DNA of 63,594 nt, counting the filler, from Candidatus Aminicenantales bacterium (GTDB lineage Bacteria > Acidobacteriota > Aminicenantia > Aminicenantales > Saccharicenantaceae), in the NCBI GenBank assembly GCA_049512315.1. It is 4 parts of 4 records of this genome, joined end to end, with 100 filler letters (N's around TTAATTAATTAA, not from the genome) between each part and the next. Parts side by side here need not be neighbours in the genome. Positions count along the whole stretch, not along the records: positions 36,413 to 52,285 come from JBEKXF010000049.1; 3 more parts are not named here. One strand, 5' to 3'. The position numbers and the translations under genes were made by a program. The notes under the pieces were generated by a model. It did not search any database and had not been told where the DNA came from. It was given only the letters and a program-made list of their open reading frames with translations. Shown one piece after another: positions 36,413-52,285 of the stretch (within the stretch, counting starts at the first letter, position 1; each line of letters opens with the position of its first letter).

Positions 36413-36679
36413 GCATCCTTGGAAGGTTTACAGAGACCGGTTCGCAAGCGAACTACCCGAGAGACCCTAGGTGATGACAAAAGCGGAAAGATTCACGTTG
36501 CCCAGGACCGGAAGTATTCACGTTGCCTTGACATCGCTTTTGTATCGATTGACATCGATCCGAGGCCGAGAATATCATCCCTATGTGATGAGAAGCGTTG
36601 TTCCGGAGCCTATGATGCTGGGCGTATGTGCGGGGTCAAAGCGCAATTTCTTATCTCCAACTCGAAGGGAAGGACGGCC

Positions 36680-37549
36680 ATGAAAAGAACCCTTGTCTTT
36701 TTGTCGCTGGCTCTGCTCGTCCAAGCTTTGGGCATGGCTGGGGCACAAGAGGCCAAGGACCCTGTCGCCGACAAATATTCCGCGCCCCTGCAGAAGATCT
36801 TCGACCTCGAAGCCCGGTTCGCTCCTCTTCACCCGGCTCTGGGGAAGGTCTATCCGGTCGCCATCGTCGAAAATAAGAAGTTCTATTTCTTCGATCCGGC
36901 TCCCGGGGAGAAGGTGTATCGCCTCGTTCGGACCGTCCCCGACACGTTCAATATCCTCACCGGGATCCGGGCCGCCATGCCCCTCGCTTTTTGGGACAAC
37001 CGCATCGCCTGCGTCGTGACCGGAGAGATCTTCGGCGAACCCGACGGCTACGTTTTCATCTTTCACGAGTTCGTGCACTGCGCCCAGTGGGATTGCTGTG
37101 AACAAAAGCTCAAAGAGGGATTGTCGATCTATCGGGAGGCGATGAAGAACAAGGATTGCATGTGGGAGCTCCAATACCCGTTTCTTTATATGAACCCGGC
37201 CTTCATCAAGTCCTATTTCGCGCTCTTCAAGGCCTGGGACGGGAATGATACCGCGGCGGCAGAATCCCTGAGGGCGACCTTAGACAAGGCGCTGTCGCCC
37301 GCGGAGTGGGAATACCTCACCTGGCAGGAATGGAAAGAGGGCTTGGCCAGGTATCTTGAGAATCGGATGCGCGAGGTCGTCGGCCTGCCCGAAAACAAGG
37401 GTGGCGAAAACCCGCCTTTCAATCGCGTCACGTTCTATCGCGGCGGGGATAAGCTCATCGGCTTCCTTGAGCGGCGCCGGCCGGGGATCGTCAACGACCT
37501 GGAGAAGCTCTACCTGGGGATCAGCGCCGCGAAAAAGGAAATTCCTTGA
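36680..37549 (+). CDS. Secreted hypothetical protein, putative gluzincin-like metallopeptidase
   Basis: ATG 36680 with RBS; signal peptide; HEFVH motif and downstream EGLARYLE. Confidence 0.6.
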   Translation: MKRTLVFLSLALLVQALGMAGAQEAKDPVADKYSAPLQKIFDLEARFAPLHPALGKVYPVAIVENKKFYFFDPAPGEKVYRLVRTVPDTFNILTGIRAAMPLAFWDNRIACVVTGEIFGEPDGYVFIFHEFVHCAQWDCCEQKLKEGLSIYREAMKNKDCMWELQYPFLYMNPAFIKSYFALFKAWDGNDTAAAESLRATLDKALSPAEWEYLTWQEWKEGLARYLENRMREVVGLPENKGGENPPFNRVTFYRGGDKLIGFLERRRPGIVNDLEKLYLGISAAKKEIP

Positions 37550-37795
37550 TCATCGTCGTACTGCCCAAAGTCGTTGCCAAGCGGGATTGATTTTTTTAAT
37601 CTGTCGCCAGATCCGGAGCCTCACCCAAAAACTGATCCGGCATATTCACCTTTGCCGCCCATAGGGATTCTTGACATCGCCAAGCCGCCGGAAGTATCCT
37701 CCCGACGTGATGAATAGAAAAGAAGATTCAATGTCCGGCACAGCAGAACGCTACGTTGCAGAAATGCGAATACTCGATACCCTCATCTATGTTCA

Positions 37796-38146
37796 ATGAA
37801 ACCACTGTACCGTCGTATGCTCCGGAGGATGAAGGCGAAGGAGGAACAATCGGCGCCGAACGCGGCCGCAGGAGCCGTCTGGTTCCTCTATATCCTCGGA
37901 TGTTGCGACGGGTCCTTCTACACCGGAGTGACCACCGATATTGACCGCCGGCTCCGGGAGCACCAGGAGGGCAAGGCCTCTCGCTATACCCGGACCCGGC
38001 GCCCCGTCGTTCTGGTCTACCAGGAGGAGTGCGGCACCCGTTCCCAGTCCCTGGCGCGAGAGTGTGCGGTCAAGTCCCTAAGCCGGCAGCACAAGGAAGA
38101 ACTCATCTCCGGATGGAAATCCGATCATGGACGGCCGCCGTCTTGA
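37796..38146 (+). CDS. Small GIY-YIG nuclease (UPF0213/YazA-like)
   Basis: WFLYILGCCDGSFYTGVTTDIDRRLREH...RYTRTRRPVVLVYQE. Confidence 0.88.
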   Translation: MKPLYRRMLRRMKAKEEQSAPNAAAGAVWFLYILGCCDGSFYTGVTTDIDRRLREHQEGKASRYTRTRRPVVLVYQEECGTRSQSLARECAVKSLSRQHKEELISGWKSDHGRPPS

Positions 38147-38258
38147 TACCACTCTCCCACCATATTGGAACTTTACCCCCCCAGACACAGCGTCTCCGTC
38201 AGATCAGCCAAGTCCGTGACGTGCCCAATTTCGGCAAACAGCCATCTCTTTTTCCTCG

Positions 38259-40421
38259 TTATCCCATCCGGCGGGGGATGGTTTCGTGGGGGATGGCGAT
38301 GGCCAGGACGAACAGGAGGCCGAGGATGTTCAGCACGGCCAGGCGGCCGAGGAGCTTAGGGATGCCCAGGAGCGGGATCACGAACGCTGAGGCCAGGACG
38401 ACGCTGAGAAACGACCCGAGAAGGTCAACGCCATAGCCCGCTCCCGGGTGGGGGCTTTCGCTGAGATAGAGCCGGTTGGCGGCGACAAAGAGATAACCGG
38501 CCAGGACACCGAAAGCGAGAAGGAATAAAAAGGGGAGGATTTCGGGCCCCCGTCTTTCGGTCATTTTCAAGCCTAGGACAAGGAGCCCGGCGGATCCCGC
38601 CTGGACAGCGGCCAGGTCCATCGTGGCGGGCCGTTTTCTCTGCCGTCCCGCGAGGGAGCCGGCGAAGAGCCCGGCCATGAAGGCCGAAAGGAGCAGCGAT
38701 ATCTTCCCGTAGACGTACCCGTAAAAGGCCTGGAAGGCGATGAGGACGGCCATTTCGACCAGGATCGACGAGAACCCCGCGAGGGCCACGGGGATGAGAA
38801 AACGGACCGGCGAACGCCTCCTCTTCCAGGCCATCAGGGCCAGGGCCAGCCCCGCCAGGACAAGAGGAAAGTCCAGGAGCCAGAACGCGGGGACCCGGGC
38901 GAAGAACCTGAGCGCGGCAGATTCGATGCCCTTGAACTGGGTGGCCCACAGGACGGAATGAAAATAGTAGCTCACCGGGACGAGGTCCCGGTCGACAAGT
39001 CCGGGCCGGGCCCGGATCTTCCCGCTGAGATAGTCGACTCGGAGCGGCGCCAGCCGGGCCGGGAGCATTTCCGGGCTGACGAACCGGTTGCGAATACCGA
39101 GGCGTTCCATAGCCGCGATGAGCGCTCCCGGGTCGATCGAGAGGGGAGAGGCGGAAGCCAGGAAAACATTGTTCTCGCCGGGCACGACCAGGACTTCGGG
39201 AAAGACGGCCCTCAGGGTGGTGTCGAGAGTCTGCAGGAACCGCTCGAGGTCCGTGCTGATATAGTTTTCGGCCGAGGGGACGACGAAGCTCAGAACGCCG
39301 TCCGGGCTGAGTTTTCTCCTGACCTCGGCGAAAAACTCCAGGGTGTAAAAACGGTTGATCTGGGCCGTGGCCGGCTCCGGCACGCTGAGGAGCACGGCAT
39401 CGTACGTCTTTGGCGTCCGCCCCAGGAAGGCCCGCCCGTCCTCGAAGATCACCCGGACCCGGGGGTTTCTCAGGGCCGCCAGGCCGGCAGGCGGCAGGTA
39501 CCGCTCGGCCAGCCGGATGATGGCCGGGTCGATCTCAACGTACTCCAGCCTCGTTCCGGGATATTTGAGGCACTCGGCGCAGCCCCCGCTGACGCCGCCT
39601 CCAATGAGCAGAATGTCCTTCATGCCTTCTCTCTGGAGGAGGGCGAAATGGACCGATTCTTCGGCGGCCTCCGTATTCGGATAAGAAAAGACGCGCATCC
39701 CGTTGCTATAGAGGGAGTATTGGTCCCCCGTTTTCAGGACCTGGAGCTTTCCGTAGGGCGTGTCCTCCGCTTGGACGAGGTCGAACGGCTTCCAGGCGGA
39801 CCGGAGCGCGGGGAAGTCGGCGGCGGCGAACAGCGCGGCGGCGACTGCGGTGGCGAGGAAGAGCAGCCAGGCCTTGGGCCTCCGCAGGCCCATAAAGATC
39901 ATAAATCCCACCGCGGCCGAAACGAGGGCGGCCCCCTGCCAATTCGAGAAGCGTGGGATGATGAGGAGATAAACGGCCAGGCCGGCGGTCGCCGCCCCCA
40001 AGGATTCGAGGAGATAGACCCGCGGCGCATCGCCGTGAAGAAGGGCCGCGTTGAGGACGAAGGCGATCCCCAGGGGAAAGCTGACGAACATGGACAGCCC
40101 CAGGGAAAAGAGGAGGGCGGGGACGAGGCCCGTGAGCTCGCCGGGCAGGCTCCCCAGCAGGCGATGGGAGAACCTCAGGAGGACGAGGCACGAAAAGTAG
40201 AGGCCGATCGTCGCCGTGTAGAATCCGGGAAGGTGGTCCGGCCGGAGGCGAAGTCTCGGACCGACCAGGCTTCCGATCCCGCCCCAGAGAAGCCAGGCCC
40301 CGAGGACGAAACCGAACGTCAGCTCGTTGCCGGAGAAATGGACGGCGAACTCCCGGAGAAGGAAGATCTGGAAGGCCGTGGCCAGAAAGCCGAGGAGAAA
40401 CGCGGGCAGCCGGGTCCTCAG
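38259..40421 (-). CDS. Membrane protein with central spermidine-synthase-like SAM-binding domain (fused MFS/spermidine synthase type); start approximate
   Basis: QIFLLREF...GNEL TM block; DTPYGKL, EESVH, LLIGGG, VEIDP, EDGRAFL, FYTLEFF; second TM block at C-terminus; start probably overlaps the amrS stop. Confidence 0.82.
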   Translation of the reverse strand: MRTRLPAFLLGFLATAFQIFLLREFAVHFSGNELTFGFVLGAWLLWGGIGSLVGPRLRLRPDHLPGFYTATIGLYFSCLVLLRFSHRLLGSLPGELTGLVPALLFSLGLSMFVSFPLGIAFVLNAALLHGDAPRVYLLESLGAATAGLAVYLLIIPRFSNWQGAALVSAAVGFMIFMGLRRPKAWLLFLATAVAAALFAAADFPALRSAWKPFDLVQAEDTPYGKLQVLKTGDQYSLYSNGMRVFSYPNTEAAEESVHFALLQREGMKDILLIGGGVSGGCAECLKYPGTRLEYVEIDPAIIRLAERYLPPAGLAALRNPRVRVIFEDGRAFLGRTPKTYDAVLLSVPEPATAQINRFYTLEFFAEVRRKLSPDGVLSFVVPSAENYISTDLERFLQTLDTTLRAVFPEVLVVPGENNVFLASASPLSIDPGALIAAMERLGIRNRFVSPEMLPARLAPLRVDYLSGKIRARPGLVDRDLVPVSYYFHSVLWATQFKGIESAALRFFARVPAFWLLDFPLVLAGLALALMAWKRRRSPVRFLIPVALAGFSSILVEMAVLIAFQAFYGYVYGKISLLLSAFMAGLFAGSLAGRQRKRPATMDLAAVQAGSAGLLVLGLKMTERRGPEILPFLFLLAFGVLAGYLFVAANRLYLSESPHPGAGYGVDLLGSFLSVVLASAFVIPLLGIPKLLGRLAVLNILGLLFVLAIAIPHETIPRRMG

Positions 40422-41539
40422 GCCCAGATCCCCGGCACGGGCGTTCCGCAAAACTCGCACTTTCCCCTCTTGAGCCGGATCCCAGTGACCGTGAAGCCTG
40501 TCCTTTGGATGATCGTCTTCTTGCAGTTCGGGCAATACGTGTTTTCGCCGGGATGCCCGGGCACGTTACCGACGTAGACGAACCGCAGCCCTTCTCCAAG
40601 GGCCGTGTCCCGGGCCATTTCCAGGGTCGAGACAGGCGTGGGCGGCAGGTTCTTGACAAGATAGAGGGGCTGGAACCTGGAAAAGTGGAGGGGGACCCGG
40701 TCCCCGGCCTCGTTCTTGACCCACCGGGCCATCTCCCGGATGTCCGCCGCCGAATCGTTGAGCGTCGGGATCACGAGATAGACGATCTCGAGCCAGACCT
40801 TGCTCTTCGCCACGGACCGGATGGTCTCGAGCACCGTCTTGAGCTCGCCCCGGACGTATTTCGTGTAAAAATCCTGCGAATATGCCTTCAGGTCGACCTT
40901 GATGGCATCGACGACGCCGATGAGGTCCTTGAGCGGCTCCGGCTTGATGTGCCCTCCGGTCACGACGGCGCTCCGCACGCCCAGCCTCCGGGCCTCCACG
41001 GCCGTGTCGTACATGTATTCGAAGAAGACGACGGGCTCCGTGTAGGTGTAAGCGATGGAGGGACAACCGTATTTTTCGGCTTGCGCGGGGATGATCCTGG
41101 GCGGAAGGTCGACGTTCTCGACCTGCTCGGGCCGGACCTGGGAGATTTCCCAGTTCTGGCAGAACTTGCAATTCACGTTGCACCCCGCGGTGGCCAGGGA
41201 GAGGGCGTTCGTTCCGGGCAGGAAGTGGAAGAAGGGCTTTTTCTCGATCGGGTCGACGTTGAGGCTGCAGGCCTTGCCGTAGACGAGGGTGTAGTAGGTC
41301 CCGCCCTGGTTTTCCCGGACGCCGCAGTAGCCGCGCTCCTTGTCGCCGAGACGGCAAGCCCGGGGACAGAGCTCGCACTCGATCTCGCGGTCCGGAAGCT
41401 TCCTGTAATAGCGGGCCTCGACATGCGAGAGGCCGCCCTTTTCCCCGAAGGCGGAGAGCCGGGAGCACAGGGACGGCAAACCCGTCCCCAAGACAAGTCC
41501 CGCTCCGGCCGCGCTCCTGAAAAAATCACGGCGATTCAT
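40418..41539 (-). CDS. amrS: AmmeMemoRadiSam-system radical SAM enzyme with twin-arginine signal
   Basis: CELCPRAC...CGVREN, DPIEKKPFFHF, GCNVNCKFCQNWEISQ, YTYTEP, YVGNVPG..ENTYCPNC; N-terminus MNRRDFF; ATGA overlap with DUF362 gene. Confidence 0.9.
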   Translation of the reverse strand: MNRRDFFRSAAGAGLVLGTGLPSLCSRLSAFGEKGGLSHVEARYYRKLPDREIECELCPRACRLGDKERGYCGVRENQGGTYYTLVYGKACSLNVDPIEKKPFFHFLPGTNALSLATAGCNVNCKFCQNWEISQVRPEQVENVDLPPRIIPAQAEKYGCPSIAYTYTEPVVFFEYMYDTAVEARRLGVRSAVVTGGHIKPEPLKDLIGVVDAIKVDLKAYSQDFYTKYVRGELKTVLETIRSVAKSKVWLEIVYLVIPTLNDSAADIREMARWVKNEAGDRVPLHFSRFQPLYLVKNLPPTPVSTLEMARDTALGEGLRFVYVGNVPGHPGENTYCPNCKKTIIQRTGFTVTGIRLKRGKCEFCGTPVPGIWA

Positions 41540-42435
41540 GGGACCGTTTCCTCGATCGTTTCGATCCCGCCGAGGTCGGCCCGGCCCAGGCCCATTTTTT
41601 CTGCGGTGAGCAGATAAGCGGGCTCGCGGCCTTCCTCGGCGAGCGAGGGGAGGCCCTTGGCGGCCCGGAATCGTTCGATGAGGGCCCAGCCGACGCGGTC
41701 GGCCGCCACCGGGTCGAGGCTGAAGATGAAGCCGCCGTACCGTTCCGCCCACTGGGGATGGAACGACGGCCCCCGGTGATACTGGACGACGAGGCAATCC
41801 AGGACGGAGATCCTGTGTTTGCCCTTGACCGGAGGCGAATCGAAGACCTCGGGGACAAAGGGGTTGCAGTGGAAATCATGGTACTTGTTGGGATTGTGGA
41901 TGGCGCCGAAGTAATTCTTCATCCCGGCCGTGACCCCGGCCAGGCCGTGGTCCTTGAGAATGGCCAGGCTGACGGAGGCCGTTACGAGATCCGCTTGGAT
42001 CTTTGAAAAGAGGCTGCCGATGTTGAGGTGGGAGACGAGCTCCGAGCCGTAGCCGGCCCCGTCCGTGTCCGTCCCGAACACATGGAACCCACCCCCACCC
42101 GCGGCGAGCCTGTAGCCGGCGTCACGGAGCTCGCGGTTCGTCCTGTCCCAGATGATGATATTTTTTTCCGCCAGGCCGTTCCGCGAGATCCAGCCCGCCA
42201 GAGCGAGGGAAATCTCGGGACGGGTGCTGATCGCCCGGCCGCCGATCGTGTTGACCTTGATCCCGACCCGGTCCTCCGGCCGGAAGACCGAGAGGACGGC
42301 GCTCCTCTCTTCACGTTCCCCCGTCAGGAGCCCGAATCCTCTGGAAAACATCTTGAGGATCCTGGCCTGCTCTGCTGGGCTGCCCGGATCCGTGAGGCCG
42401 CCCGACCGGACGATGACGACTCGGGAATTGGCCAT
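41536..42435 (-). CDS. DUF362 domain-containing protein
   Basis: VGIKVN, IIIWDR, LKDHGLAGVTAGMKNYFG, SLDPVAAD. Confidence 0.85.
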   Translation of the reverse strand: MANSRVVIVRSGGLTDPGSPAEQARILKMFSRGFGLLTGEREERSAVLSVFRPEDRVGIKVNTIGGRAISTRPEISLALAGWISRNGLAEKNIIIWDRTNRELRDAGYRLAAGGGGFHVFGTDTDGAGYGSELVSHLNIGSLFSKIQADLVTASVSLAILKDHGLAGVTAGMKNYFGAIHNPNKYHDFHCNPFVPEVFDSPPVKGKHRISVLDCLVVQYHRGPSFHPQWAERYGGFIFSLDPVAADRVGWALIERFRAAKGLPSLAEEGREPAYLLTAEKMGLGRADLGGIETIEETVP

Positions 42436-42600
42436 GGCAAATCCATGATGACCGCTTTTTCCGGGGTTGTCAACAAACCCTCCTCGTAAGGCGGGCGGGA
42501 ACCGGCATGGTGCCACCCATCTCTTCGGGAAAGTCTCTGAGCTTGCCAAGTCCACTTCGGTCGTCTATATTAGTTTCATGAGAATGCGCGGAGGTTCAGC

Positions 42601-43539
42601 ATGAATGCGATCCATTGGGATAGATTCGCGGCCACCCTCACTCTCCTCTTGGCGCTGACGATCTTGTCCACGGCGTCGGCGCCGGCCCAGGAGAGGAAGG
42701 CCAATCCGGCCCTGGCGGCCCTGCTTCCGCAAGCCGAAGCCTGGAAACCAGCCGAAGCGCCGCAGAGCTTTTTCTCCGAAAGCCTCTATGAGTATATCGA
42801 CGGGGCCGCCGAGAGCTATATGAGCTATGACTTCAAGGAGCTTCTCGTCGTCCAGCTCAAGAAGGAGGGGACGGAGGCCACCCTGACCGTCGAGATCTAC
42901 GACATGTCGGGGCCGGGCAACGCATTCGGCATCTTCAGCGCTGAGCGGTACCCTGAGAACAAGCCCGTTCCGGTCGGGGACCTCGGGTACCTCGAAGGCG
43001 AGGCGCTGAATTTCCTGTCAGGACGCTACTATGTGAAGCTCCTCAGCTTCGGCCTGGGAGAAGGGACCGCCCCGGCCCTGACCAATTACGGCCAGAGGAT
43101 CGCCGGGGCCGTCCCGGAAAAAGGCGGCCTCCCGCCCCTTCTTCGGGTGTTCCCGCCCGGGGGGCTTGTCGCCCGGAGCGAAAAGTTCGTCAAGAAGAAT
43201 TTCCTGGGCTACGAGTTCCTCCACGACGGCTTCCTGGCCACCTACAAGATTGATGGCCAGGAGGTCGACTGCTTCGTGGCCGCGGCGGACTCGGAAAAGG
43301 AAGTCGAAACGGCGCTCGGCCGGCTCCTGGACTTTTTCGCCAAGGACAAGCAGGTTCCGGAAAAGACGGCCCTGGGTTATCGCGTCAAGAACCGCTATTC
43401 CCAGCTCACGTATATCGGCCATGTCCGGAACGTCCTCTGCGGCGTCCTGCGGGTTCCCGACGGCCTGGGATCGGCCGGAGAAAAACTGCTCGGGGCGTTG
43501 ACGGATTCGCTGGCCAAGATTCTGGCCGCCAAGGGTTGA
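42601..43539 (+). CDS. Secreted DUF6599-like protein
   Basis: Signal peptide; LYEYIDGAAESY, VEIYDM...AFGIFS.ER, GRYYVK. Confidence 0.7.
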   Translation: MNAIHWDRFAATLTLLLALTILSTASAPAQERKANPALAALLPQAEAWKPAEAPQSFFSESLYEYIDGAAESYMSYDFKELLVVQLKKEGTEATLTVEIYDMSGPGNAFGIFSAERYPENKPVPVGDLGYLEGEALNFLSGRYYVKLLSFGLGEGTAPALTNYGQRIAGAVPEKGGLPPLLRVFPPGGLVARSEKFVKKNFLGYEFLHDGFLATYKIDGQEVDCFVAAADSEKEVETALGRLLDFFAKDKQVPEKTALGYRVKNRYSQLTYIGHVRNVLCGVLRVPDGLGSAGEKLLGALTDSLAKILAAKG

Positions 43540-43594
43540 AACCCTGCGGATCGCACCTTTTGAGCGGGAGAGACGCACGATAAAAGGCCCGGCA

Positions 43595-44614
43595 GTGGAT
43601 GACCATAAATTTTTCCGCTTCTCGGTCGGCCTGATCCTTATCTTTGTCCTGGGGATTGTCCTGAAGGCGGCCCGGGAGGTCATTTATCCGTTCATTCTCG
43701 CCATTTTCATCTCTTATGTCGTCGACCCGATCATGGCTTTTCTCCAGCGACTCAAGATCCCCAAAGCGGCGGCCGCCGCCATCATCCTCCTCGGGGCCTT
43801 CGTCGTCCTTTCCCTCATCGGCCTCGTCGTCTATTCGAGCGGGAAAACCCTGGCCGCGGAGCTCCCCCGGTTTGAGCAGAGACTGACCGACCTCACGGGG
43901 TGGCTCGAGAAAGGTGTCGGCGGGATCCCTCTCAAACGCCAGGTCGCCTCTTATATCGAAAAGATCAACCTCCAGGGTGCCGCCTCCTTTGTGCTGGGGG
44001 CCCTGGGCCCCATCCTCGGGCTCTTCGGCAAGCTCTTTCTCCTTTTCCTGTTCCTGGCCGTCATCATGTTCGGGAGGGGCAGAATCACGGTCAAGGTCCG
44101 GAAATTCCTGAGCCCGGAGAGGTCAGCCCAGGTTATGGAGGCGCTCGAAAAGATCAACTTCCAGGTCCGGAAGTACCTGGTGATCAAGACTGTCTTGAGC
44201 CTCATCAACGGGTTCATTGTCTGGGCCGTCCTCGCGCTGTTCGGCGTGGATTTTGCGCTCCTCTTCGGCTTCCTGGCTTTCCTTCTGTATTACATCCCGA
44301 ATATCGGCTCCCTGGTCGCCACCGTGCTCCGGGTCGGTTTTGCCCTGTTCCAGTTCGGGACGATTTGGACCCCGCTCTGGGTCCTTGTCATCACCGTCGG
44401 AGCGGACAATGTCCTGGGGAACATGATCGAGCCCCGGATGATGGGCAAGGGACTCGGTTTGAGCCCTCTCGTCCTCATTTTTTCTTTGGTCTTCTGGGGT
44501 TGGCTCTGGGGGATCCCCGGGATGGTCATGGCGGTCCCCCTGGTCGCGGTCATCAAGATCGTCTGCCAGAACGTCCCTTCGCTCCGGCCGGTCGCCGTCC
44601 TGATCGGCTCTTAA
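43595..44614 (+). CDS. AI-2E (PerM/TqsA) family transporter
   Basis: YLVIKT, YIPNIGS, GNMIEPRMMG..LGLSPL, WGWLWGIPGMVMAVPL. Confidence 0.92.
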   Translation: MDDHKFFRFSVGLILIFVLGIVLKAAREVIYPFILAIFISYVVDPIMAFLQRLKIPKAAAAAIILLGAFVVLSLIGLVVYSSGKTLAAELPRFEQRLTDLTGWLEKGVGGIPLKRQVASYIEKINLQGAASFVLGALGPILGLFGKLFLLFLFLAVIMFGRGRITVKVRKFLSPERSAQVMEALEKINFQVRKYLVIKTVLSLINGFIVWAVLALFGVDFALLFGFLAFLLYYIPNIGSLVATVLRVGFALFQFGTIWTPLWVLVITVGADNVLGNMIEPRMMGKGLGLSPLVLIFSLVFWGWLWGIPGMVMAVPLVAVIKIVCQNVPSLRPVAVLIGS

Positions 44615-44648
44615 GCGGCTCCGGGCGGGAGTCCGGAGGCCGGACCGC

Positions 44649-45389
44649 TCATTCGTCCCCCTCGACGATAAAGGCCTCGGGAGAGATCTCCTTCATCTTC
44701 CGGCCGAGATAGCTCTTGAGGGCCTTCTGGGCGGCCCTCTGCTCGGCAGCCTTCTTGGACGGGCCTTTCGCCTTGGCCAGGGGTTTGCCATTGAGTGAGA
44801 CTTCCACGGTGAAGGTCTTTTTGTGCTCGGGCCCCTTGGCCGTGATGGTCGTATAAGCGGGCGCGGGGAGATCGGCTTTCTGGAACAGCTCCTGAAGGGC
44901 CGACTTGTAATTGTTGATCTGGAAGGTCTCGGTTTGGATGGGCTTCAGAGTCGGGGCGAGGAGACGGTGGATGAACGCCCGGGCGGCCTCGAAACCTCCG
45001 TCCAGGAAGATGGCCCCGACCAGGGCCTCAAACGCCCCGGCCAGGATGGAGCCCTTCGTCCGGCCGCCGCTCTTCTCTTCCCCCCGGCCGAGGAGGATAG
45101 CCCTGTCGAGCTTGATCCTCCGGGCTTCCCTGGCCAGGGCCAGGGTGCTGGTCGCTGAGGCCTTGAGCTTGGAGAGCTCGCCTTCGGTCCGGTCGGGGAA
45201 AGCCTTGAAGTAGAACTCGGCCGTGGCCAGGCCGATGACCGAATCCCCGAGGAATTCCAGGAGCTCATTATCCTGGGGCCCGTCCGGCTGGTTCTCATAG
45301 GCGTGGGAGCTGTGGGTCAGGGCCTTCCGCAAAAGCTCGGCATCCTTGAATGAGTAACCGGCTGCTTTTTCGATGCGATCGGTCTTCAT
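44649..45389 (-). CDS. rnc: Ribonuclease III
   Basis: ALTHSS, NELLEFLGDSV, EGELS, FEALVGAIFLDGG, dsRBD YKSALQE. Confidence 0.95.
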   Translation of the reverse strand: MKTDRIEKAAGYSFKDAELLRKALTHSSHAYENQPDGPQDNELLEFLGDSVIGLATAEFYFKAFPDRTEGELSKLKASATSTLALAREARRIKLDRAILLGRGEEKSGGRTKGSILAGAFEALVGAIFLDGGFEAARAFIHRLLAPTLKPIQTETFQINNYKSALQELFQKADLPAPAYTTITAKGPEHKKTFTVEVSLNGKPLAKAKGPSKKAAEQRAAQKALKSYLGRKMKEISPEAFIVEGDE

Positions 45390-45407
45390 GCCCAGTGTCC
45401 TTCGGCT

Positions 45408-46721
45408 TCAGGCGGGCTTTCCGGGCGCCGCCGGGTAGGTGAAATCGAAAGGATAGACCACCCGGCCGGCGACGATCGTCAACACCGCCCGCCCCTTCAG
45501 CTTCCAGCCGTCGAACGGCGTGTTCCGTCCTTTGGATTCGAAATTTATCCGGTCGACCGTCACCTTTTGGGACAGGTTCAGGACCGTGAGATCGGCGTCC
45601 GCCCCGACGGAGATCCGGCCTTTTCCCCGCAGGCCGAGCAGGCGGGCGGGGTTGGCGGACATGAGCTCAACGAAACGCTCAAGGGAAATGATCCTTTTAT
45701 GAACGAAGCGGTCGATAATGAGCGGGACCGCCGTCTCCAGTCCGACGATCCCGAACGGCGCTTTTTCGATACCCTGGCTTTTTTCCTTGACGGTGTGCGG
45801 AGCATGGTCTGTGGCGATGGCATCGACGACACCGGATCTCACGGCCTCGACGAGCGCGTCCACGTCCGCCCGGCTCCGCAGGGGAGGGTTCATTTTGAAG
45901 TCCGGGTCATGGCTTTCGAGGGCGGCGTCCGTCAGAATGAGATGGTGGGGCGTCACCTCGGCCGAGGCGGCGACCCCCAGCTCTCTCGCCGCGCGGAGGG
46001 CCGTGACTCCGCCCTTCGTGCTGAGGTGGGCGATATGAACCCGGGCCCCGGTTTCCCCGGCGAGGATGAGGTCGCGGGCGACCATGACCTCCTCGGCCGC
46101 CGCGGGAATTCCCTTGAGGCCGAAGCGGCGGGAGTAGGCTCCCTCATGCATGACGCCGTCGCCGCTCAAGGCCTTGTCCTCGCAATGGTCGATCACGAGC
46201 GCGCCGAGGGCCTGGGCGGACTCGAGGGCCCGTTTCATGAAGCGGCTGTCGGGGACCGGCTGGCCGTCGTCGGAAAAAGCGATGGCCCCGGCCGCGAGCA
46301 GGCCGGCCATGTCCACGAGCTCCTCGCCCCTGGACCCCTTGCTGATGGCCGCGATCGGGAGGACGTTGACGACGGCGCCTCGCGCCGCCGCGGCGAGGAT
46401 GTCTTGAGTGACTCGGGGGTCGTCGTTGACGGGATGTGTGTTGGGCATCGCGCAGACCGTGGTGAACCCGCCTCGGGCCGCGGCGCGGGACCCGGTGGCG
46501 ATGGTTTCCTTGGCCTCGGACCCCGGCTCCCGGAGGTGGGTGTGCATGTCGATGAGCCCGGGCACGACGACCAGCCTCGAGACATCGACGGAGGGGCACG
46601 AGGGGGCCTCGATCCTGGACTTGATCTCGGCGATCCTGCCGTCGACGATGAGGAGGTCGAGGGTTTCGTCGGTTTTCGTCCCCGGGTCGACCACCCGGCC
46701 GTTCTTGATCAGAAGCTTCAT
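45408..46721 (-). CDS. pyrC: Dihydroorotase (type I)
   Basis: MKLLIKNG, DMHTHLREPG, MPNT, DHCED, EVTPHHL, KMNPPLR, ATDHAPH. Confidence 0.95.
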   Translation of the reverse strand: MKLLIKNGRVVDPGTKTDETLDLLIVDGRIAEIKSRIEAPSCPSVDVSRLVVVPGLIDMHTHLREPGSEAKETIATGSRAAARGGFTTVCAMPNTHPVNDDPRVTQDILAAAARGAVVNVLPIAAISKGSRGEELVDMAGLLAAGAIAFSDDGQPVPDSRFMKRALESAQALGALVIDHCEDKALSGDGVMHEGAYSRRFGLKGIPAAAEEVMVARDLILAGETGARVHIAHLSTKGGVTALRAARELGVAASAEVTPHHLILTDAALESHDPDFKMNPPLRSRADVDALVEAVRSGVVDAIATDHAPHTVKEKSQGIEKAPFGIVGLETAVPLIIDRFVHKRIISLERFVELMSANPARLLGLRGKGRISVGADADLTVLNLSQKVTVDRINFESKGRNTPFDGWKLKGRAVLTIVAGRVVYPFDFTYPAAPGKPA

Positions 46722-46744
46722 GGTCCCTGCCGCGCTCCGTCCTC

Positions 46745-47296
46745 TCAGATCTTCGTCGGCTCCGCGATCAGGACCTCGTCGATCGAATCGAGCTCCTTGA
46801 GCCGGACCTGGATGACCTCGCGGCGGGAGGTCGGCAGGATCTTCCCCACGTAGTCCGGCCGGATGGGGAGTTCCCGGTGGCCCCGGTCGATGAGGACGAT
46901 GAGCTGAACCGTCTTCGGCCGGCCGGCGTCCATCAGGCCATCCATGGCCGCCCGGATCGTCCGTCCCGTCATCAGGACGTCGTCCACGAGAAGCACGTCT
47001 TTCTTGTCGATGGCGAAATCGACTTTGGGTTTTTTGCCCACGGGCCGGGCGTCCTTGGCCGGGAGGTCGTCCCGGTAGCGGGAGATGTCCAGGGCGCCGA
47101 CCGGAATGTTCACGCCCTCGAGTTCCTTGATCAGCCGGGCGATCCTCTTGCCGATGAAGATGCCCCGGGTCTTGATGCCGATAATGACCAGGCTCTTCAG
47201 GTTCCGGTTCCGTTCGATGATCTCGGTCGAGATCCGGATGAGGACGCGCCGGATCTTGCTTGAGTCCATGATCCGGGCCTTGATCTTCTTGTCCAT
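46745..47296 (-). CDS. pyrR: Bifunctional pyrimidine regulator/uracil phosphoribosyltransferase
   Basis: EIIERN, GIKTRG, YRDDL, LVDDVLMTGRTIRAA, DRGHRELPIRPDYVG. Confidence 0.93.
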   Translation of the reverse strand: MDKKIKARIMDSSKIRRVLIRISTEIIERNRNLKSLVIIGIKTRGIFIGKRIARLIKELEGVNIPVGALDISRYRDDLPAKDARPVGKKPKVDFAIDKKDVLLVDDVLMTGRTIRAAMDGLMDAGRPKTVQLIVLIDRGHRELPIRPDYVGKILPTSRREVIQVRLKELDSIDEVLIAEPTKI

Positions 47297-47340
47297 TCGT
47301 CAACTCCTCGTAAGGAAAATGCTATATCGCCGGGAAAAAG

Positions 47341-48264
47341 TCAACCCGGGCCGGCGAAATAAGCCCTGGCGACGTCGATGTCCATCCGGATCCGGGCCGC
47401 GAGGGCTTGCCGGTCAGCGAATTTTCTCGTCGCCCGGATCTTTTGGAGGAGACGGACCGTGAGCCCGGCCCCGTAGAGCCGGGCCCGGCGGTCCAGGATG
47501 TGGGTCTCGACGCTGACCGGGTGAACTCCGAAGGTCGGGTTGGTCCCGATGCTCGTGATCGAAGGGAACGTCCGCCCTCTCCAGATCGCCTCCGTGATGA
47601 AGACACCGTCGGGCAGGATCTCGTTCGCGGTCCGGAGGTTGGCGGTCGGCGCGCCGATGCTCCTTCCCCGAGCGAGCCCCTTGATGACCTCGCCGGCGAT
47701 CTCATAGGGCCGGCCGAGCAGGCGGGCCGCCTCGGCGACGCGGCCCTGGACGAGGAGGCGGCGGATGGCGCTCGAGCTGACGGCGACGCCGTCGATGACG
47801 GCGGGCGGCACGATGTGGACGCGCAGCCCGTGCACGCGGCCGAGCTCCCGGAGGCGGCCGACATCGCCGCGGCGGTCCCGGCCAAAACGGAAATCCCGGC
47901 CGACGACGACTTCCCGGGCCCCCAGCCGATCCCGGAGGATTCGTTCGACGAAATTCGACCCGGAAAGCTCCGAGAAAGCCCGGTCAAATCCGGTGACAAG
48001 AACGGCGTCGACGCATGACTCCCCGAGGCGCTCCAGTCTCTGCTCCGGCGAATCGATCATCCGGGCAGCCTTTTTCCCAAGGGCCCGCTCCGGGTGGGGG
48101 TCGAACGTCAGGACAAGCGAGGAGAGGTTCCGCCGCTCGGCCAGGCCGCGCAGGCGGGCGAGGATCTTCCGGTGCCCGAGATGGAGGCCGTCGAAGTTGC
48201 CGATGGCCACGGCCGCGGGGCGGGGGAGGGGCCGGAACTCTTCAAACCCGTGGAAGACGAACAT
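47341..48264 (-). CDS. ribF: Bifunctional riboflavin kinase/FAD synthetase
   Basis: GNFDGLHLGH, TFDPHP, SSSAIR, LLGRPY, PTAN, GTNPTF, ETHILD. Confidence 0.95.
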   Translation of the reverse strand: MFVFHGFEEFRPLPRPAAVAIGNFDGLHLGHRKILARLRGLAERRNLSSLVLTFDPHPERALGKKAARMIDSPEQRLERLGESCVDAVLVTGFDRAFSELSGSNFVERILRDRLGAREVVVGRDFRFGRDRRGDVGRLRELGRVHGLRVHIVPPAVIDGVAVSSSAIRRLLVQGRVAEAARLLGRPYEIAGEVIKGLARGRSIGAPTANLRTANEILPDGVFITEAIWRGRTFPSITSIGTNPTFGVHPVSVETHILDRRARLYGAGLTVRLLQKIRATRKFADRQALAARIRMDIDVARAYFAGPG

Positions 48265-48267
48265 GCG

Positions 48268-48591
48268 TCACATCTTGATGGTGTCGGTCTTCTTGAGGTA
48301 GGCCATCTTGAGCTGGTCCAGCACGCCCTCCAGGAATTTTTCCTCTTCCCCGTCGAGGTTCCCCTTGGTCCTGTCCTTGAGGAGGTCCAGGAGGTCAATG
48401 TTCCGCTTGGCCAGGGCCAGGTCCTCACGCCGCTCTCCGGACGCCGGGTCGTCCATGAGCCCGAGGTGGATGAGAGAGGGGAAGTAGAGGAGGATGACGA
48501 TGGAGCTGAATTCGAGCGGCGGGAGATACCCTTTGTCTTCCGCCCGGCGGTCGCGCCCGCCCCGATCGTCCGAACGTTCGTTTGAGGTCAT
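48268..48591 (-). CDS. DUF1844 domain-containing protein
   Basis: LG...P...DLALAKRNIDLL.LL.DRTKGNLD.EE..FL...L.QL. Confidence 0.85.
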   Translation of the reverse strand: MTSNERSDDRGGRDRRAEDKGYLPPLEFSSIVILLYFPSLIHLGLMDDPASGERREDLALAKRNIDLLDLLKDRTKGNLDGEEEKFLEGVLDQLKMAYLKKTDTIKM

Positions 48592-48761
48592 GGAAGGATC
48601 CTTCGTCCTGGGATGTTCCCGCCGGTCCGGCTCTCACTTTCCGAATGATCTGAACCTGTCACGGATTCCCATCTTACCGTTTTGCCGGCCAAACATCAAG
48701 GTCGGTCCGCCGCGATAGTCCTCGGGGACGAGTTTCAGGGATGCCGAACACGCTCCGGGGT

Positions 48762-49887
48762 TCAGGCGGCCGCGGGCGCGGATTTTTTCCTCAGGACGAG
48801 GGCGGCCCTGACCAATTCGTCGAGGTCGCCGTCCAGGACCCGGTCCGTATCGGCCGTCTCCACCCGCGTCCTGAGGTCCTTGATCATGCGGTATGGATGG
48901 AGGACGTAGGAGCGGATCTGGTTGCCCCAGGCGATGTCGGTCTTGGCGTCCTCGAGCTTCTCGGTCTTTTCCCGCTGCTTCCGCTGCTCGAGCTCGTAGA
49001 GGCGGGCCTTGAGGACCTTCATGGCCGAGGCCTTGTTCTTGTGCTGGGACCGCTCGTTCTGGCACTGGACGACGATGCCGGTCGGGAGGTGCGTGATGCG
49101 GACGGCCGAGTCCGTGGTGTTGACGTGCTGGCCGCCCTTCCCTCCGGACCGGTAGGTGTCGATCTTCAAGTCGTCCGGATTGATGGCGACCTCGATGTCC
49201 TCATCGATCTCCGGGTAGGCGAAGACCGCGGCGAACGAGGTGTGGCGGCGCTTGGCCGCGTCGAAGGGCGAGATCCGGACGAGCCGATGGACCCCGGATT
49301 CCTGGCTCAGGTTGCCGTAAGCGTAATCCCCCTCGACGCGGAGGGTCGCGCTCTTGAGGCCGGCCTCTTCCCCGGGCTGGAGGTCAAGGACCTCGGTCTT
49401 GAACCCCTTGCGCTCCGCGTAGCGGAGGTACATCCGCAAGAGCATCTGGGCCCAGTCCTGAGACTCTGTGCCGCCGGCGCCGGGGTGGATGGTCAAGATG
49501 GCGTTCCGGGGATCGTTCTCCTCGAAAAAGAGGGCCCGGAGCTCACCGTCCGAGAGGGCCTTTTCGAAGCGGCCGAGGGCGGCCTCGATCTCGGGACCGA
49601 CCTGTTCGCCCTCCGACAGGAGTTCCGTCAGGACGTCGATCTCGTCCTTCTCGTCCTGGATCTTCACGAAGAACTGGAGGTCTCGCTCAAGCCGTTTCTT
49701 TTTCTGCTGAAGGGCCTGGGAGGTCTTCTGGTCCTGCCAGACCTCGGGAGAGGCGAGGCGCTGGTTGATCGAGTCGCATTCGGCTTTTTTATGATCGAGG
49801 TCAAAGAAAGCCCCGCAGCTCTTCGAACTTGCCGAAGAAGCCGTCGAGGCGCATCCTGAGGTCAGATGAGATCTCTGTCATAGCCAT
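48762..49887 (-). CDS. prfB: Peptide chain release factor 2 with programmed +1 frameshift
   Basis: Short ORF (ATG 49887 or 49881) ends CGGGGCTTT-CTT-TGA-C at 49806-49800; +1 frame has GAGGTES, SPF, GGQHVN, QIRSYV. Confidence 0.95.
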
Positions 49888-51400
49888 GGCGGTGCCTGTC
49901 CTTCCGTTGATGGAACAGAGCCAGAATAGAGGACAGGAGGGCCAATGTCAAGCCGGCCAGGGGAAGGACGTCTCCCGTCCTCGCGTAGAGCGAGAGGCGG
50001 CTCGACGGGGAGATCGTTCCGGTGAGGACGGCCGGCGTCATGAGGCGGGAGCGGGTGAGCACCCGGCCGAAGGGGTCGACGATCCCGCTGATGCCGGTCG
50101 TGGCCGCCCGGAGGAGATAGCGGCGGTTTTCGACGGCGCGGAGGACAGCCTGGGCCCAATGCTGATAGGGGGCCGAGGATGTGCCGTACCAACCGTCGTT
50201 GGTGATCGTCGCGAGAAAGGTGGCGCCCCGGCGGACGAAGTCGCGGACGAGACCGGGAAATATGACCTCGTAGCAGATGGGCGAAGCGAACTTGTGCCCT
50301 GCGTACGTATGCAGGACGGGCTCGGTCCCCGGCGTGATCTCGCCGATGGCGTGGGTCAGCTTTTCGATGAAGAAAAAGACTTTCTTGTAGGGCGTGTACT
50401 CTCCAAAGGGGACCAGATGCATCTTGAAATAGAGGCTCCGGGAGAGGTCCGGGTGCAGGACCATGGCCGTATTGTGGTAGAGCCGGTTTCCGGGCGGACC
50501 GGTCGTTTCGTTGGTCCCGATGAGGAGTGTGACCCGGCTCGACCGGACATAATTTTCGAGCCCGGCGCTGAGTTCACGGTAGATTTCCTCCCCGCAGCTG
50601 AAGCAGAGCGGGACCGTGAATTCCGGCCAGATGACCAGGCCCGAGCCGCCCGCTGCGGCCTGACGGGTCAGGGCCATGTGCTGGTCGAAGATCTCCCTGA
50701 CCTGTCCCGGCTGAGCGAAATCCCAATAGATGTCCGAAGAGACATTTCCCTGGATGACCGACGCCTGGACCTTCGACGGCCCATCGAAGCTGGCCTTCTT
50801 GAGCTCGTACCATCCCCAGGAGTGGGCGAGGGCGAGAAGCCCCAGGGCTGCGAAGAAAGGTCCCCGCTTTTTCCGGGTCAGGGCCAGGACGAAGGAGCTC
50901 TGGAGAAGGACGAGGACGAAGGAGATCCCGCCCACTCCCGTCAGGGAGGCGGTCTGGAGGAAGGGTAGGTTTTCGTACTGGCTCGTGCCCAGGAGCCCCC
51001 AGGGAAATCCCGTCAGAAGATGGGTCACGAGATATTCGCAGGCGATCCAGAAGAAGGGGGCCAGGATGAAAGCCCCGGTCGGAAAGGCACGATGGACCGT
51101 GACGAAGAGGCTGCCGAAGACCCCCCAGTAAAGGGCCAGGAACCCGATGAGGGCCAGGTAGATGACGAGGCAGAGCCAGAGCGGCATCCCGGCGTAGTGC
51201 CGGGGGACGTCCGGGATCCAATAGAGCAGGACGGCGTAGAAGAAAAGCCCGGCGACCGCTCCGAGCCGGAAACCGGAGCGGTCGCGCGTGCTAGACAGGG
51301 CGATGAGGAGCGGGATCAGGGAGACCCAGGCCAGAAAGGCGAAGTGAAGCTTGGGAAACGCCAGGGCCGTCAGAACCCCGCTCAGAGCAGCCAGCCACAT
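49862..51400 (-). CDS. lnt: Apolipoprotein N-acyltransferase
   Basis: GFPW, IQGN, IWPE, KMHLVPFGEY, ICYE, TNDGWY, RAVEN. Confidence 0.95.
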   Translation of the reverse strand: MWLAALSGVLTALAFPKLHFAFLAWVSLIPLLIALSSTRDRSGFRLGAVAGLFFYAVLLYWIPDVPRHYAGMPLWLCLVIYLALIGFLALYWGVFGSLFVTVHRAFPTGAFILAPFFWIACEYLVTHLLTGFPWGLLGTSQYENLPFLQTASLTGVGGISFVLVLLQSSFVLALTRKKRGPFFAALGLLALAHSWGWYELKKASFDGPSKVQASVIQGNVSSDIYWDFAQPGQVREIFDQHMALTRQAAAGGSGLVIWPEFTVPLCFSCGEEIYRELSAGLENYVRSSRVTLLIGTNETTGPPGNRLYHNTAMVLHPDLSRSLYFKMHLVPFGEYTPYKKVFFFIEKLTHAIGEITPGTEPVLHTYAGHKFASPICYEVIFPGLVRDFVRRGATFLATITNDGWYGTSSAPYQHWAQAVLRAVENRRYLLRAATTGISGIVDPFGRVLTRSRLMTPAVLTGTISPSSRLSLYARTGDVLPLAGLTLALLSSILALFHQRKDRHRHGYDRDLI

Positions 51401-51449
51401 CGGAGTATCTTCCTTAGGAAGCTCGTTCCGGGCTCCGGGCCGGAAGGTT

Positions 51450-52112
51450 TCAGTCCTTGACGATCCTGTAGTCGGTTTTTTTCTTCCCGGCCTCGTTCAG
51501 CTTGGTCAAGGTTGCGGCTGCTTTCTCCCGGGTGGAAAAGCCGCCCACCCTGACGCGATACCAGGATTTGGCATCGGTCGGCCGAGGATCGGCGACGACC
51601 ACCGGAAAGCCCCGTTTCCTGAACTTGTCGGCTTCCGCGCCGGCCTGGACCCGGTCCGTGAATGCGGCGACCTGGATATAAAAGAGCCCCGTGCTAGCCG
51701 ATTCAGCCGGCTTGGAGAGGGTCTTCGTGGTCGGCGGGGTCGAGGCCTTGAACGCCGGCTTCTGGACCTGCTTGACCGGCGGCACGGTCTCGAGCGATGT
51801 CTTCGTCGATTTCTCCTGAGCCGCCGGCTTTCCCTGGCTTCCGGACAGGGGAGAGCTTGTCGTCAGCCCCGATGCCGGGCCGCTCTTGACCTGGTCCTGG
51901 GCCGGCTCGGCCGGCTTCCCGGCGGCCTGGTCCTTGACGGGTTCCTGGATCTGCTGGGCCACGATATGGGTCGCGGCGGTGATCTGGACCTGCTTTTTCC
52001 CGACCGAGACCCCTAGCAGGAAAATGAAGACGCCGAGGACGAGCACGCACACGAAGATGATCACGAGGAGGGTGCTCGAGACCTGGATTTCCCGGAAGTC
52101 TTTAGTTTTCAT
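51450..52112 (-). CDS. SPOR domain cell-division protein (FtsN/DedD-like)
   Basis: N-terminal TM segment, P/K/T-rich linker, YIQVAAF...WYRVRVGGF. Confidence 0.88.
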   Translation of the reverse strand: MKTKDFREIQVSSTLLVIIFVCVLVLGVFIFLLGVSVGKKQVQITAATHIVAQQIQEPVKDQAAGKPAEPAQDQVKSGPASGLTTSSPLSGSQGKPAAQEKSTKTSLETVPPVKQVQKPAFKASTPPTTKTLSKPAESASTGLFYIQVAAFTDRVQAGAEADKFRKRGFPVVVADPRPTDAKSWYRVRVGGFSTREKAAATLTKLNEAGKKKTDYRIVKD

Positions 52113-52117
52113 CTCTC

Positions 52118-52285
52118 TTATTTTTTCTCCTGGGGTTTTTCATAAGAGAAGGCCCGGAGGAGCTCGAGGGGCAGCGGGAAGACGATCGTGGAATTCTTCT
52201 CGGTGGCGATCTCGGCCAGGGTGCTGAGGAAGCGGAGCTGGAGGGCCTGAGGGTTTCGGGAAATGATGTCCGCGGCCTGGGTGAG
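52118..52285 (-). CDS. 3' end of slipin/stomatin (SPFH) family protein, cut by contig end
   Basis: [43 protein letters not shown]...*. Confidence 0.85.

Follow-up and report, generated by a model that had tools for sequence, protein, structure and literature searches.

A twin-arginine leader on AmrS and a putative envelope form of the AmmeMemoRadiSam system in an Aminicenantales bacterium

Four genes at the amrS locus

We analysed a window of 63,594 nucleotides from the genome of Candidatus Aminicenantales bacterium (GCA_049512315.1). The window is a join of contigs, and a four-gene locus lies whole on one of them (C49, window positions 36413-52285). Its central gene, amrS (40418..41539, minus strand; 373 aa), encodes the radical S-adenosylmethionine (SAM) enzyme of the AmmeMemoRadiSam system, which otherwise works with AMMECR1-like AmrA and Memo-like AmrB. 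AmrS scored 375.7 bits against TIGR04337 (cut-off 220), belongs to a branch with export signals and begins with a predicted twin-arginine (Tat) signal peptide at about residues 1-30 (41450..41539, minus strand). Upstream of amrS lies a DUF362 gene of an AmrS-linked subfamily (41536..42435, minus strand; 299 aa; PF04015, 53 bits). Downstream lies the gene of a membrane protein of about 720 aa, here called MFS-SpeE, that combines a major facilitator superfamily (MFS) fold with a spermidine-synthase-like domain (38259..40421, minus strand, start codon uncertain; PF01564 (Spermine_synth), 73 bits). A DUF6599 gene with a Sec-type signal (42601..43539, plus strand; 312 aa; PF20244, 150 bits) is divergent from the DUF362 gene, with 165 bp between them.

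These family matches confirmed the four-gene layout previously read from the sequence alone, including the divergent DUF6599, and the closest named relatives of the locus were Candidatus Aminicenantes. That reading also had overlapping stops and starts throughout. The overlap is present between DUF362 and amrS, where ATGA joins the stop and the start, but between amrS and the SpeE-like gene it depends on a CTG overlapping the amrS stop, which we took as the start codon.

The AmrS leader and its cysteine motifs

Signal peptides were assigned by pattern, hydropathy and eye. The AmrS N-terminus contains an RRDFF motif followed by a hydrophobic stretch and an LSA-type cleavage site. RR-x-hydrophobic-hydrophobic occurred within the first 25 residues in 117 of the 120 best AmrS homologues (69-90% identical); two of the three exceptions were apparently late start calls and one had CR. 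We then used 80 genomic loci, divided by title and identity into 37 of the Aminicenantes group and 43 others. The strict RR pattern was found at 70 of them (down to 49% identity), and in most of the remaining 10 either RR is visible by eye or the sequence is truncated or mis-anchored. Loci with an RR leader were titled Aminicenantes, Zixibacteria, KSB1, Calditrichia, Latescibacterota, Terriglobia, Phycisphaerae, Poribacteria and Deltaproteobacteria. Outside the motif the leader varied among homologues, as signal peptides are free to do, indicating that it is real as a sequence feature. A true start downstream of the RR motif was rejected on two grounds: 117/120 homologues have a gene call that opens with the RR leader, and an in-frame stop closely precedes it in several loci.

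The search of the genome for tatABC identified tatC with a tatA/B-like gene immediately upstream. By pattern, AmrS thus has what is expected of a Tat substrate: an RRxFL-type motif, an h-region, a cleavage site, conservation and Tat genes in the same genome. The twin-arginine leader and its conservation in orthologs, both anticipated by the sequence-only reading, were borne out and, with the signal-bearing partners described below, support an export-type radical SAM system. On these features AmrS is very probably exported to the envelope.

As was also read earlier, AmrS keeps the radical SAM CxxxCxxC motif, whose C120/C124/C127 are invariant, and additional cysteines in an N-terminal four-Cys motif and two C-terminal CxxC motifs. 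CxxxCxxC and the four C-terminal cysteines were present in 82-83 of 83 export-labelled and 66-68 of 68 unlabelled AmrS sequences, and the four N-terminal cysteines in 82-83/83 and 68/68, respectively. Only seven alignment columns separate exported from signal-less AmrS (e.g. P137/E138 and V253), so the comparison gave no clue to the substrate. The nearest solved sequence was a PFL-activating enzyme (E 6e-5). Among the NCBIfam models that scored below cut-off, the nearest point to the same enzymes, and this is a common database label for AmrS-type proteins. However, AmrS scored 58 bits where the cut-off is 232 and has the extra Cys motifs, and no glycyl-radical partner was seen among the recurrent neighbours.

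A phylogeny was built from 132 AmrS cores: both AmrS proteins of this genome, 18 proteins from the loci, and the 112 among 150 representatives whose single domain was intact. One branch (support 0.975) held 63 tips, of which 55 carried Tat or Sec/transmembrane leaders, compared with 0/69 outside it. The second AmrS of this genome, which is signal-less, was placed outside. This distribution suggests that AmrS forms with export signals mostly group together in a single branch. In some relatives a Sec or lipoprotein-type signal or an anchor stands in place of the Tat leader. Fusions of all three domains in one chain, ordered AmrS-B-A or B-A-S (P0142 and P0165), carry N-terminal signals or anchors. 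Two secreted AmrS relatives, P0130 and P0136, have beta-propeller or CBM11-like fusions.

Radical SAM enzymes require SAM, a low-potential electron and the absence of oxygen, and for these reasons are regarded as cytoplasmic. The RR leader could instead be an uncleaved membrane anchor or a chaperone tag, with AmrS on the cytoplasmic face, rich in SAM and reductant, modifying something that is exported later. This explanation agrees with the established cytoplasmic location of radical SAM enzymes, with a literature search for exported ones that gave no paper, with the only moderate hydrophobicity of the leader h-region and with the missing signal on DUF362 at this locus. However, moderate hydrophobicity is normal for Tat signals, and relatives swap in Sec or lipoprotein-type signals or anchors. 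In addition, the partner AmrB-AmrA fusion has a Sec-type signal, and in P0152 and P0162 AmrS shares a chain segment with FMN_bind domains (a single anchor comes first, and no Pfam membrane domain separates FMN_bind from AmrS). We consider a cytoplasmic-face AmrS quite improbable and retain export as the preferred reading.

Partners of AmrS

Alignment-averaged hydropathy of MFS-SpeE revealed seven helices, a 310-residue soluble domain and seven further helices, in which helices 1-6 and 9-14 form a repeat (96.5% probability, E 7.5e-10). The predicted model (predicted local distance difference test score, pLDDT, 94) matched MFS proteins over ~330 residues, best VMAT2 (Z 25.8, root-mean-square deviation 3.9, 328 aligned) and SotB (Z 24.2). 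Its soluble domain (~204-513) matched spermidine synthases (Z 24.6). The model has the two pseudo-symmetric six-helix halves of an MFS protein, with two extra helices flanking the SAM-binding domain, and the K/R-rich loops (53-63, 180-184, 533-542, 593-602 and 648-666) all lie on one side, opposite the soluble domain. Because MFS termini and the central loop are cytoplasmic and one extra helix stands on each side of the domain, the SAM-binding domain is predicted to face outward. The ESM Atlas returned only same-family clusters for this protein.

The SAM-binding motifs are kept in MFS-SpeE (G274 and D328 are invariant, and position 296 is always E/D), but the acidic positions of spermidine synthases are not. 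Position 277 is variable, with no Asp among its four commonest residues, and position 346 is N in 36/54 and D in 9/54 sequences; we take these to be the catalytic/decarboxylated-SAM-binding Asp positions of aminopropyltransferases. The TIGR00417 spermidine synthase score was 67.9 bits, well below the cut-off of 249.6. The fused MFS/spermidine synthase family NF037959 and membrane-bound SpeE (PRK03612) resemble MFS-SpeE in joining helices to a SpeE-like SAM-binding domain, but both scored below cut-off (37.5 vs 40 and 116 vs 472, respectively). Moreover, both MFS halves are complete in the protein described here and the domain sits between them, and the catalytic Asp is mostly absent.

Co-inheritance was surveyed in 251 genomes of the phylum. 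The MFS-SpeE gene was present in 62 of the 65 genomes with export-type AmrS (E up to 1e-135) and in 16 of the 186 without, making it the most constant partner tested genome-wide. When three of these 16 genomes were fetched, each had such an AmrS beside MFS-SpeE, below the threshold. The earlier suggestion that the membrane protein handles SAM is consistent with the modelled MFS fold and the SAM-binding domain predicted outside, and MFS-SpeE may export SAM, although the fold gives neither substrate nor direction.

Alternatively, within an envelope system the membrane protein could be an importer or an active transferase: AmrS and AmrBA would degrade or remodel an external nucleoside-like or amine compound, MFS-SpeE would import what they produce, and SAM would either have a catalytic role or leave the cell attached to AmrS. 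The MFS matches do include amine and nucleoside transporters (VMAT2, ENT1, NupG and YegT), the outer domain is closest to aminopropyltransferases with E/D kept at position 349, and some radical SAM enzymes recycle SAM. These fold matches, however, do not indicate a substrate, and the Asp presumed typical of spermidine synthase catalysis is mostly replaced. The single copy and tight co-inheritance with AmrS accord with a dedicated cofactor service. We therefore regard an importer or transferase as unlikely and continue with MFS-SpeE as a putative SAM exporter.

The sequence-only reading described the system as lacking AmrA and AmrB. This is correct for contig C49, where neither amrA nor amrB was found, but not for the genome. 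A signal-less set comprises the second AmrS (C35), a solo AmrA (C38) and a solo AmrB (C1), and contig C9 encodes an AmrB-AmrA fusion with a Sec-type N-terminus and intact AmrA RGCIG/DxRF and Memo motifs. One genome thus holds two parallel sets, signal-less AmrS/AmrA/AmrB and Tat-AmrS with a signal-bearing AmrB-AmrA fusion, and at the Tat-amrS locus AmrA and AmrB are displaced rather than missing. At C8:99970-101187 the genome encodes one more Memo-family protein, its third, which is divergent, has altered motifs and bears a Sec-type signal. The claimed absence also failed beyond this lineage: the fusion adjoins amrS in 26 of the 43 non-Aminicenantes loci, compared with 0/37 in the Aminicenantes group, and AmrB has a signal-like N-terminus in 26/26 anchored non-Aminicenantes loci. 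Within the class, AMMECR1 was present in 119 of 121 genomes, mostly in two copies. Among 20 regions from the class taken for long AMMECR1 frames, 19 had a Memo match, with a signal-like N-terminus in 19/19; one of the regions has amrS and DUF362 alongside, and most others lie amid housekeeping genes.

DUF362 had been proposed as an Fe-S/redox partner. We rejected DUF362 as an Fe-S protein because 66 sequences contain no conserved set of Cys ligands (no Cys among the invariant or 90%-conserved columns and one majority Cys only), and its fold is that of LarA. The invariant residues are K60, H163, K173, N181, N183, K184, H186 and D213, and the model (pLDDT 96) matched only the LarA family (Z 14.1-16.2; next fold 5.4), corresponding to the LarA N-terminal fold. 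PDB sequence searches with DUF362 gave no match. According to parts of PMC11770544, DUF362 and LarA share clan CL0471. DUF362 may nevertheless have a redox role. The protein has no signal peptide here, and an RR leader was seen in 0/36 Aminicenantes-group loci, compared with 19/29 others (by pattern, with a few miscalls). That the signal is lost here but frequent elsewhere suggests that DUF362 is co-exported by hitch-hiking on AmrS.

The LarA fold raises a further explanation, in which DUF362 is a nickel-pincer (NPN) hydride-transfer enzyme and radical and hydride chemistry are coupled, for example in epimerisation of a sugar or hydroxy acid. H163, K173 and H186 align with the positions of LarA H174, K184 and H200, whose roles are given in sections of PMC7583248 and PMC12611868. 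The genome encodes larC (C22:46344-47465) and larE (C7:68500-69279), larA was not found in it, and excerpts of PMC11796402 and PMC13524815 link such a combination to unrecognised NPN proteins. In addition, larC occurs in 45/52 genomes with this DUF362 vs 145/199 of the rest. In 7 of 20 Acidobacteriota loci that were fetched, the gene immediately after amrS is larA-like and lacks a signal (L175-L181, e.g. L175:8402-10878; order amrBA-DUF362-amrS-larA). However, six of these seven come from one family, the profile match is weak (11% probability), LarA H108 has no match in DUF362, and the LarA C-terminal domain is absent. larC is missing from seven of the 52 genomes that carry this DUF362, and the five of these tested also lack larE above cut-off while keeping the same motifs, indicating that NPN is not required; an obligate dependence on NPN was rejected on this co-occurrence. 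DUF362 is also dispensable in 18/65 genomes with export-type AmrS. An NPN enzyme at this locus is therefore quite improbable. The genome has about nine DUF362 genes, and members of other subfamilies are candidate NPN binders. In 22 other class genomes of the phylum sample, larC was found in 20 and Lar_N in two.

The four genes had been expected to co-occur in other genomes. DUF362 and the membrane gene are indeed widely adjacent to amrS (37/37 and 36/37 Aminicenantes-group loci; 35/40 and 24/43 others, respectively), but DUF6599 adjoins the operon only in Aminicenantes: the divergent gene was adjacent at 31/31 Aminicenantes-group loci with room for it and at 0/33 others, so it does not qualify as a core part. 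Elsewhere in this genome two further DUF6599 genes lie directly beside DUF362 genes; DUF6599 is a lineage-specific neighbour here and probably a general DUF362 companion. A PDB sequence search with DUF6599 gave nothing significant and the ESM Atlas returned same-family clusters only. In 20 further loci, selected for an absent DUF362 or for a membrane gene without a passing AmrS, amrS had amrBA as a neighbour in 20/20 and the membrane gene in 14/20. Together these counts define the core as AmrS, AmrBA and the membrane protein. DUF362 is optional in the system; this subfamily was found in 47/65 genomes with export-type AmrS and in 2/186 without.

Elsewhere in the window, the opposite strand downstream of the operon (36506-38146) encodes a secreted-looking protein of ~347 aa, which had no Pfam or NCBIfam match, and carries a small GIY-YIG gene. 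At ~49800, a gene that we take to be prfB-like contains CTTTGAC, the usual programmed +1 frameshift site in prfB. Another contig (C48; 27492-36161) carries a glycoside-hydrolase-like gene cluster, labelled by appearance only.

Electron supply and a putative envelope pathway

Several relatives suggest how an exported AmrS might be reduced. AmrS stands behind FMN_bind domains in a single chain in P0139, P0140, P0152, P0153 and P0162, and the fusion partners of distant AmrS relatives are FMN_bind, Fer4_5 and DsbD_2 domains. The FMN domains of P0152 and P0162 contain an SGAT-type motif, which we take to be a flavinylation motif. These fusions are the best independent sign of an AmrS that would be outside and need an outside electron donor. 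They resemble the NapH/NosR-like flavinylated modules of PMC8238504, parts of which describe FMN_bind domains in NapH-like proteins as extracytosolic, but differ from the present case in that this genome has no FMN_bind match. The main text of that paper does not mention radical SAM.

In one clade of Tat-AmrS (L197-L214, L065 and P0129; support 0.963), a CxxCH...H insert lies between the signal and the enzyme; it may equip this radical SAM enzyme to bind a c-type heme or a metal. Among 117 anchored loci, 89 had an adjacent DUF362 without CxxCH, 14 had CxxCH...H after the leader without DUF362, and 14 had neither. This pattern hints at a shared electron-relay role. A cytochrome c assembly family was found in 5/5 CxxCH-bearing genomes but also in 9/14 controls, and thus says little. 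A second module, seen at C9:48954-51453 of this genome and at L050, L057, L059, L067 and L089, pairs a Tat-DUF362 with a NapH-like 4Fe-4S membrane protein and often includes DUF6599. In 9/80 loci it occurs close to the amrS module, and it is a candidate trans-membrane electron path.

The three-domain system is already known, and the exported version is a variant of it. Both have the same three domains, all eleven AmrS cysteines, the AmrA RGCIG/DxRF and Memo motifs, and amrS next to amrB-A in many phyla. In this genome AmrS passes its family cut-off and has CxxxCxxC, and AmrA and AmrB have intact motifs, but the genes are not adjacent. The variant differs in the export signals on AmrS and the AmrB-AmrA fusion, in the added MFS-SAM-domain membrane protein and often DUF362, in its coexistence with a signal-less set and in the unlinked AmrBA of Aminicenantes. 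The trio was described by Balaji and Aravind (PMC2034487), who, in the portion of that paper considered here, proposed RNA base modification and radical transfer to an AmrA Cys. Export signals on proteins with the same catalytic residues argue against RNA as the substrate of this copy and for an envelope component.

Our literature searches found no description of an exported AmrS module, and Burroughs et al. 2019, on Memo/AMMECR1 gene contexts, may already note signal-bearing forms; that work reportedly links Memo contexts to base and isoprenoid modification. The present analysis contributes the modelled MFS fold and its predicted outward-facing SAM domain, the LarA fold of DUF362 with its failed NPN test, the electron-module fusions, the displaced AmrB-AmrA fusion and the lost DUF362 signal.

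On balance we favour an envelope (periplasmic) copy of AmmeMemoRadiSam, with Tat-exported AmrS, SAM supply by the modelled MFS protein, secreted AmrB-AmrA and an envelope target. AmrS would receive its 4Fe-4S cluster in the cytoplasm and leave folded through Tat, consistent with the signal observed. The signal-less DUF362, which has a Tat signal of its own in many other phyla, would leave bound to AmrS. MFS-SpeE, as its predicted fold and topology allow, would move SAM out, hold it on the outer domain and perhaps take back the spent adenosyl product. An outside donor would then reduce the cluster; the FMN-binding or NapH-type domains and the CxxCH insert observed in relatives may play this part, and here the donor would most likely be DUF362 or the genome's DUF362/NapH-like module. 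Finally, the 5'-deoxyadenosyl radical would pass to the invariant Cys of AmrA or to the substrate, and the Memo metal site would finish the reaction, a chemistry modelled on Balaji and Aravind and compatible with the intact motifs. A lipid or lipid-linked envelope component as substrate is our guess.

Several points weigh against this interpretation. The whole case is computational, built from sequences and predicted models. The AmrS trees are midpoint-rooted and their sampling is biased to matches near the query; adding 28 sequences to give 160 kept 82/83 export-labelled tips together with a support of only 0.725 and left P0165 outside the branch. The genome counts depend on thresholds we chose and on related genomes that are not independent, and the same 18/65 genomes manage export-type AmrS without this DUF362. 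No FMN_bind gene turned up in this genome, which is 96.6% complete, and the electron donor proposed for it is therefore a guess. Neither an adjacent DUF362 nor CxxCH is present at 14 of 117 loci (some at contig ends), and because CxxCH forms one clade, its exclusivity with DUF362 is a single event.

More broadly, and more tentatively, anaerobic bacteria of many phyla may run radical SAM chemistry outside the cytoplasm. They would use an old AmrS branch, several export routes, interchangeable donors (flavinylated NapH-type domains, a heme-c-type CxxCH insert or LarA-fold DUF362) and an MFS SAM exporter with an outer SAM-binding domain. The module appears to provide both SAM and an electron outside the membrane. 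If this is true, we know of no earlier example of a periplasmic radical SAM pathway or of a bacterial SAM exporter. It would also offer a soluble, secreted handle on the unsolved Memo/AMMECR1 reaction. A secreted copy constrains the Memo/AMMECR1/radical SAM puzzle, which extends to the human homologues MEMO1 and AMMECR1, by pointing to a substrate that can be reached from the periplasm.

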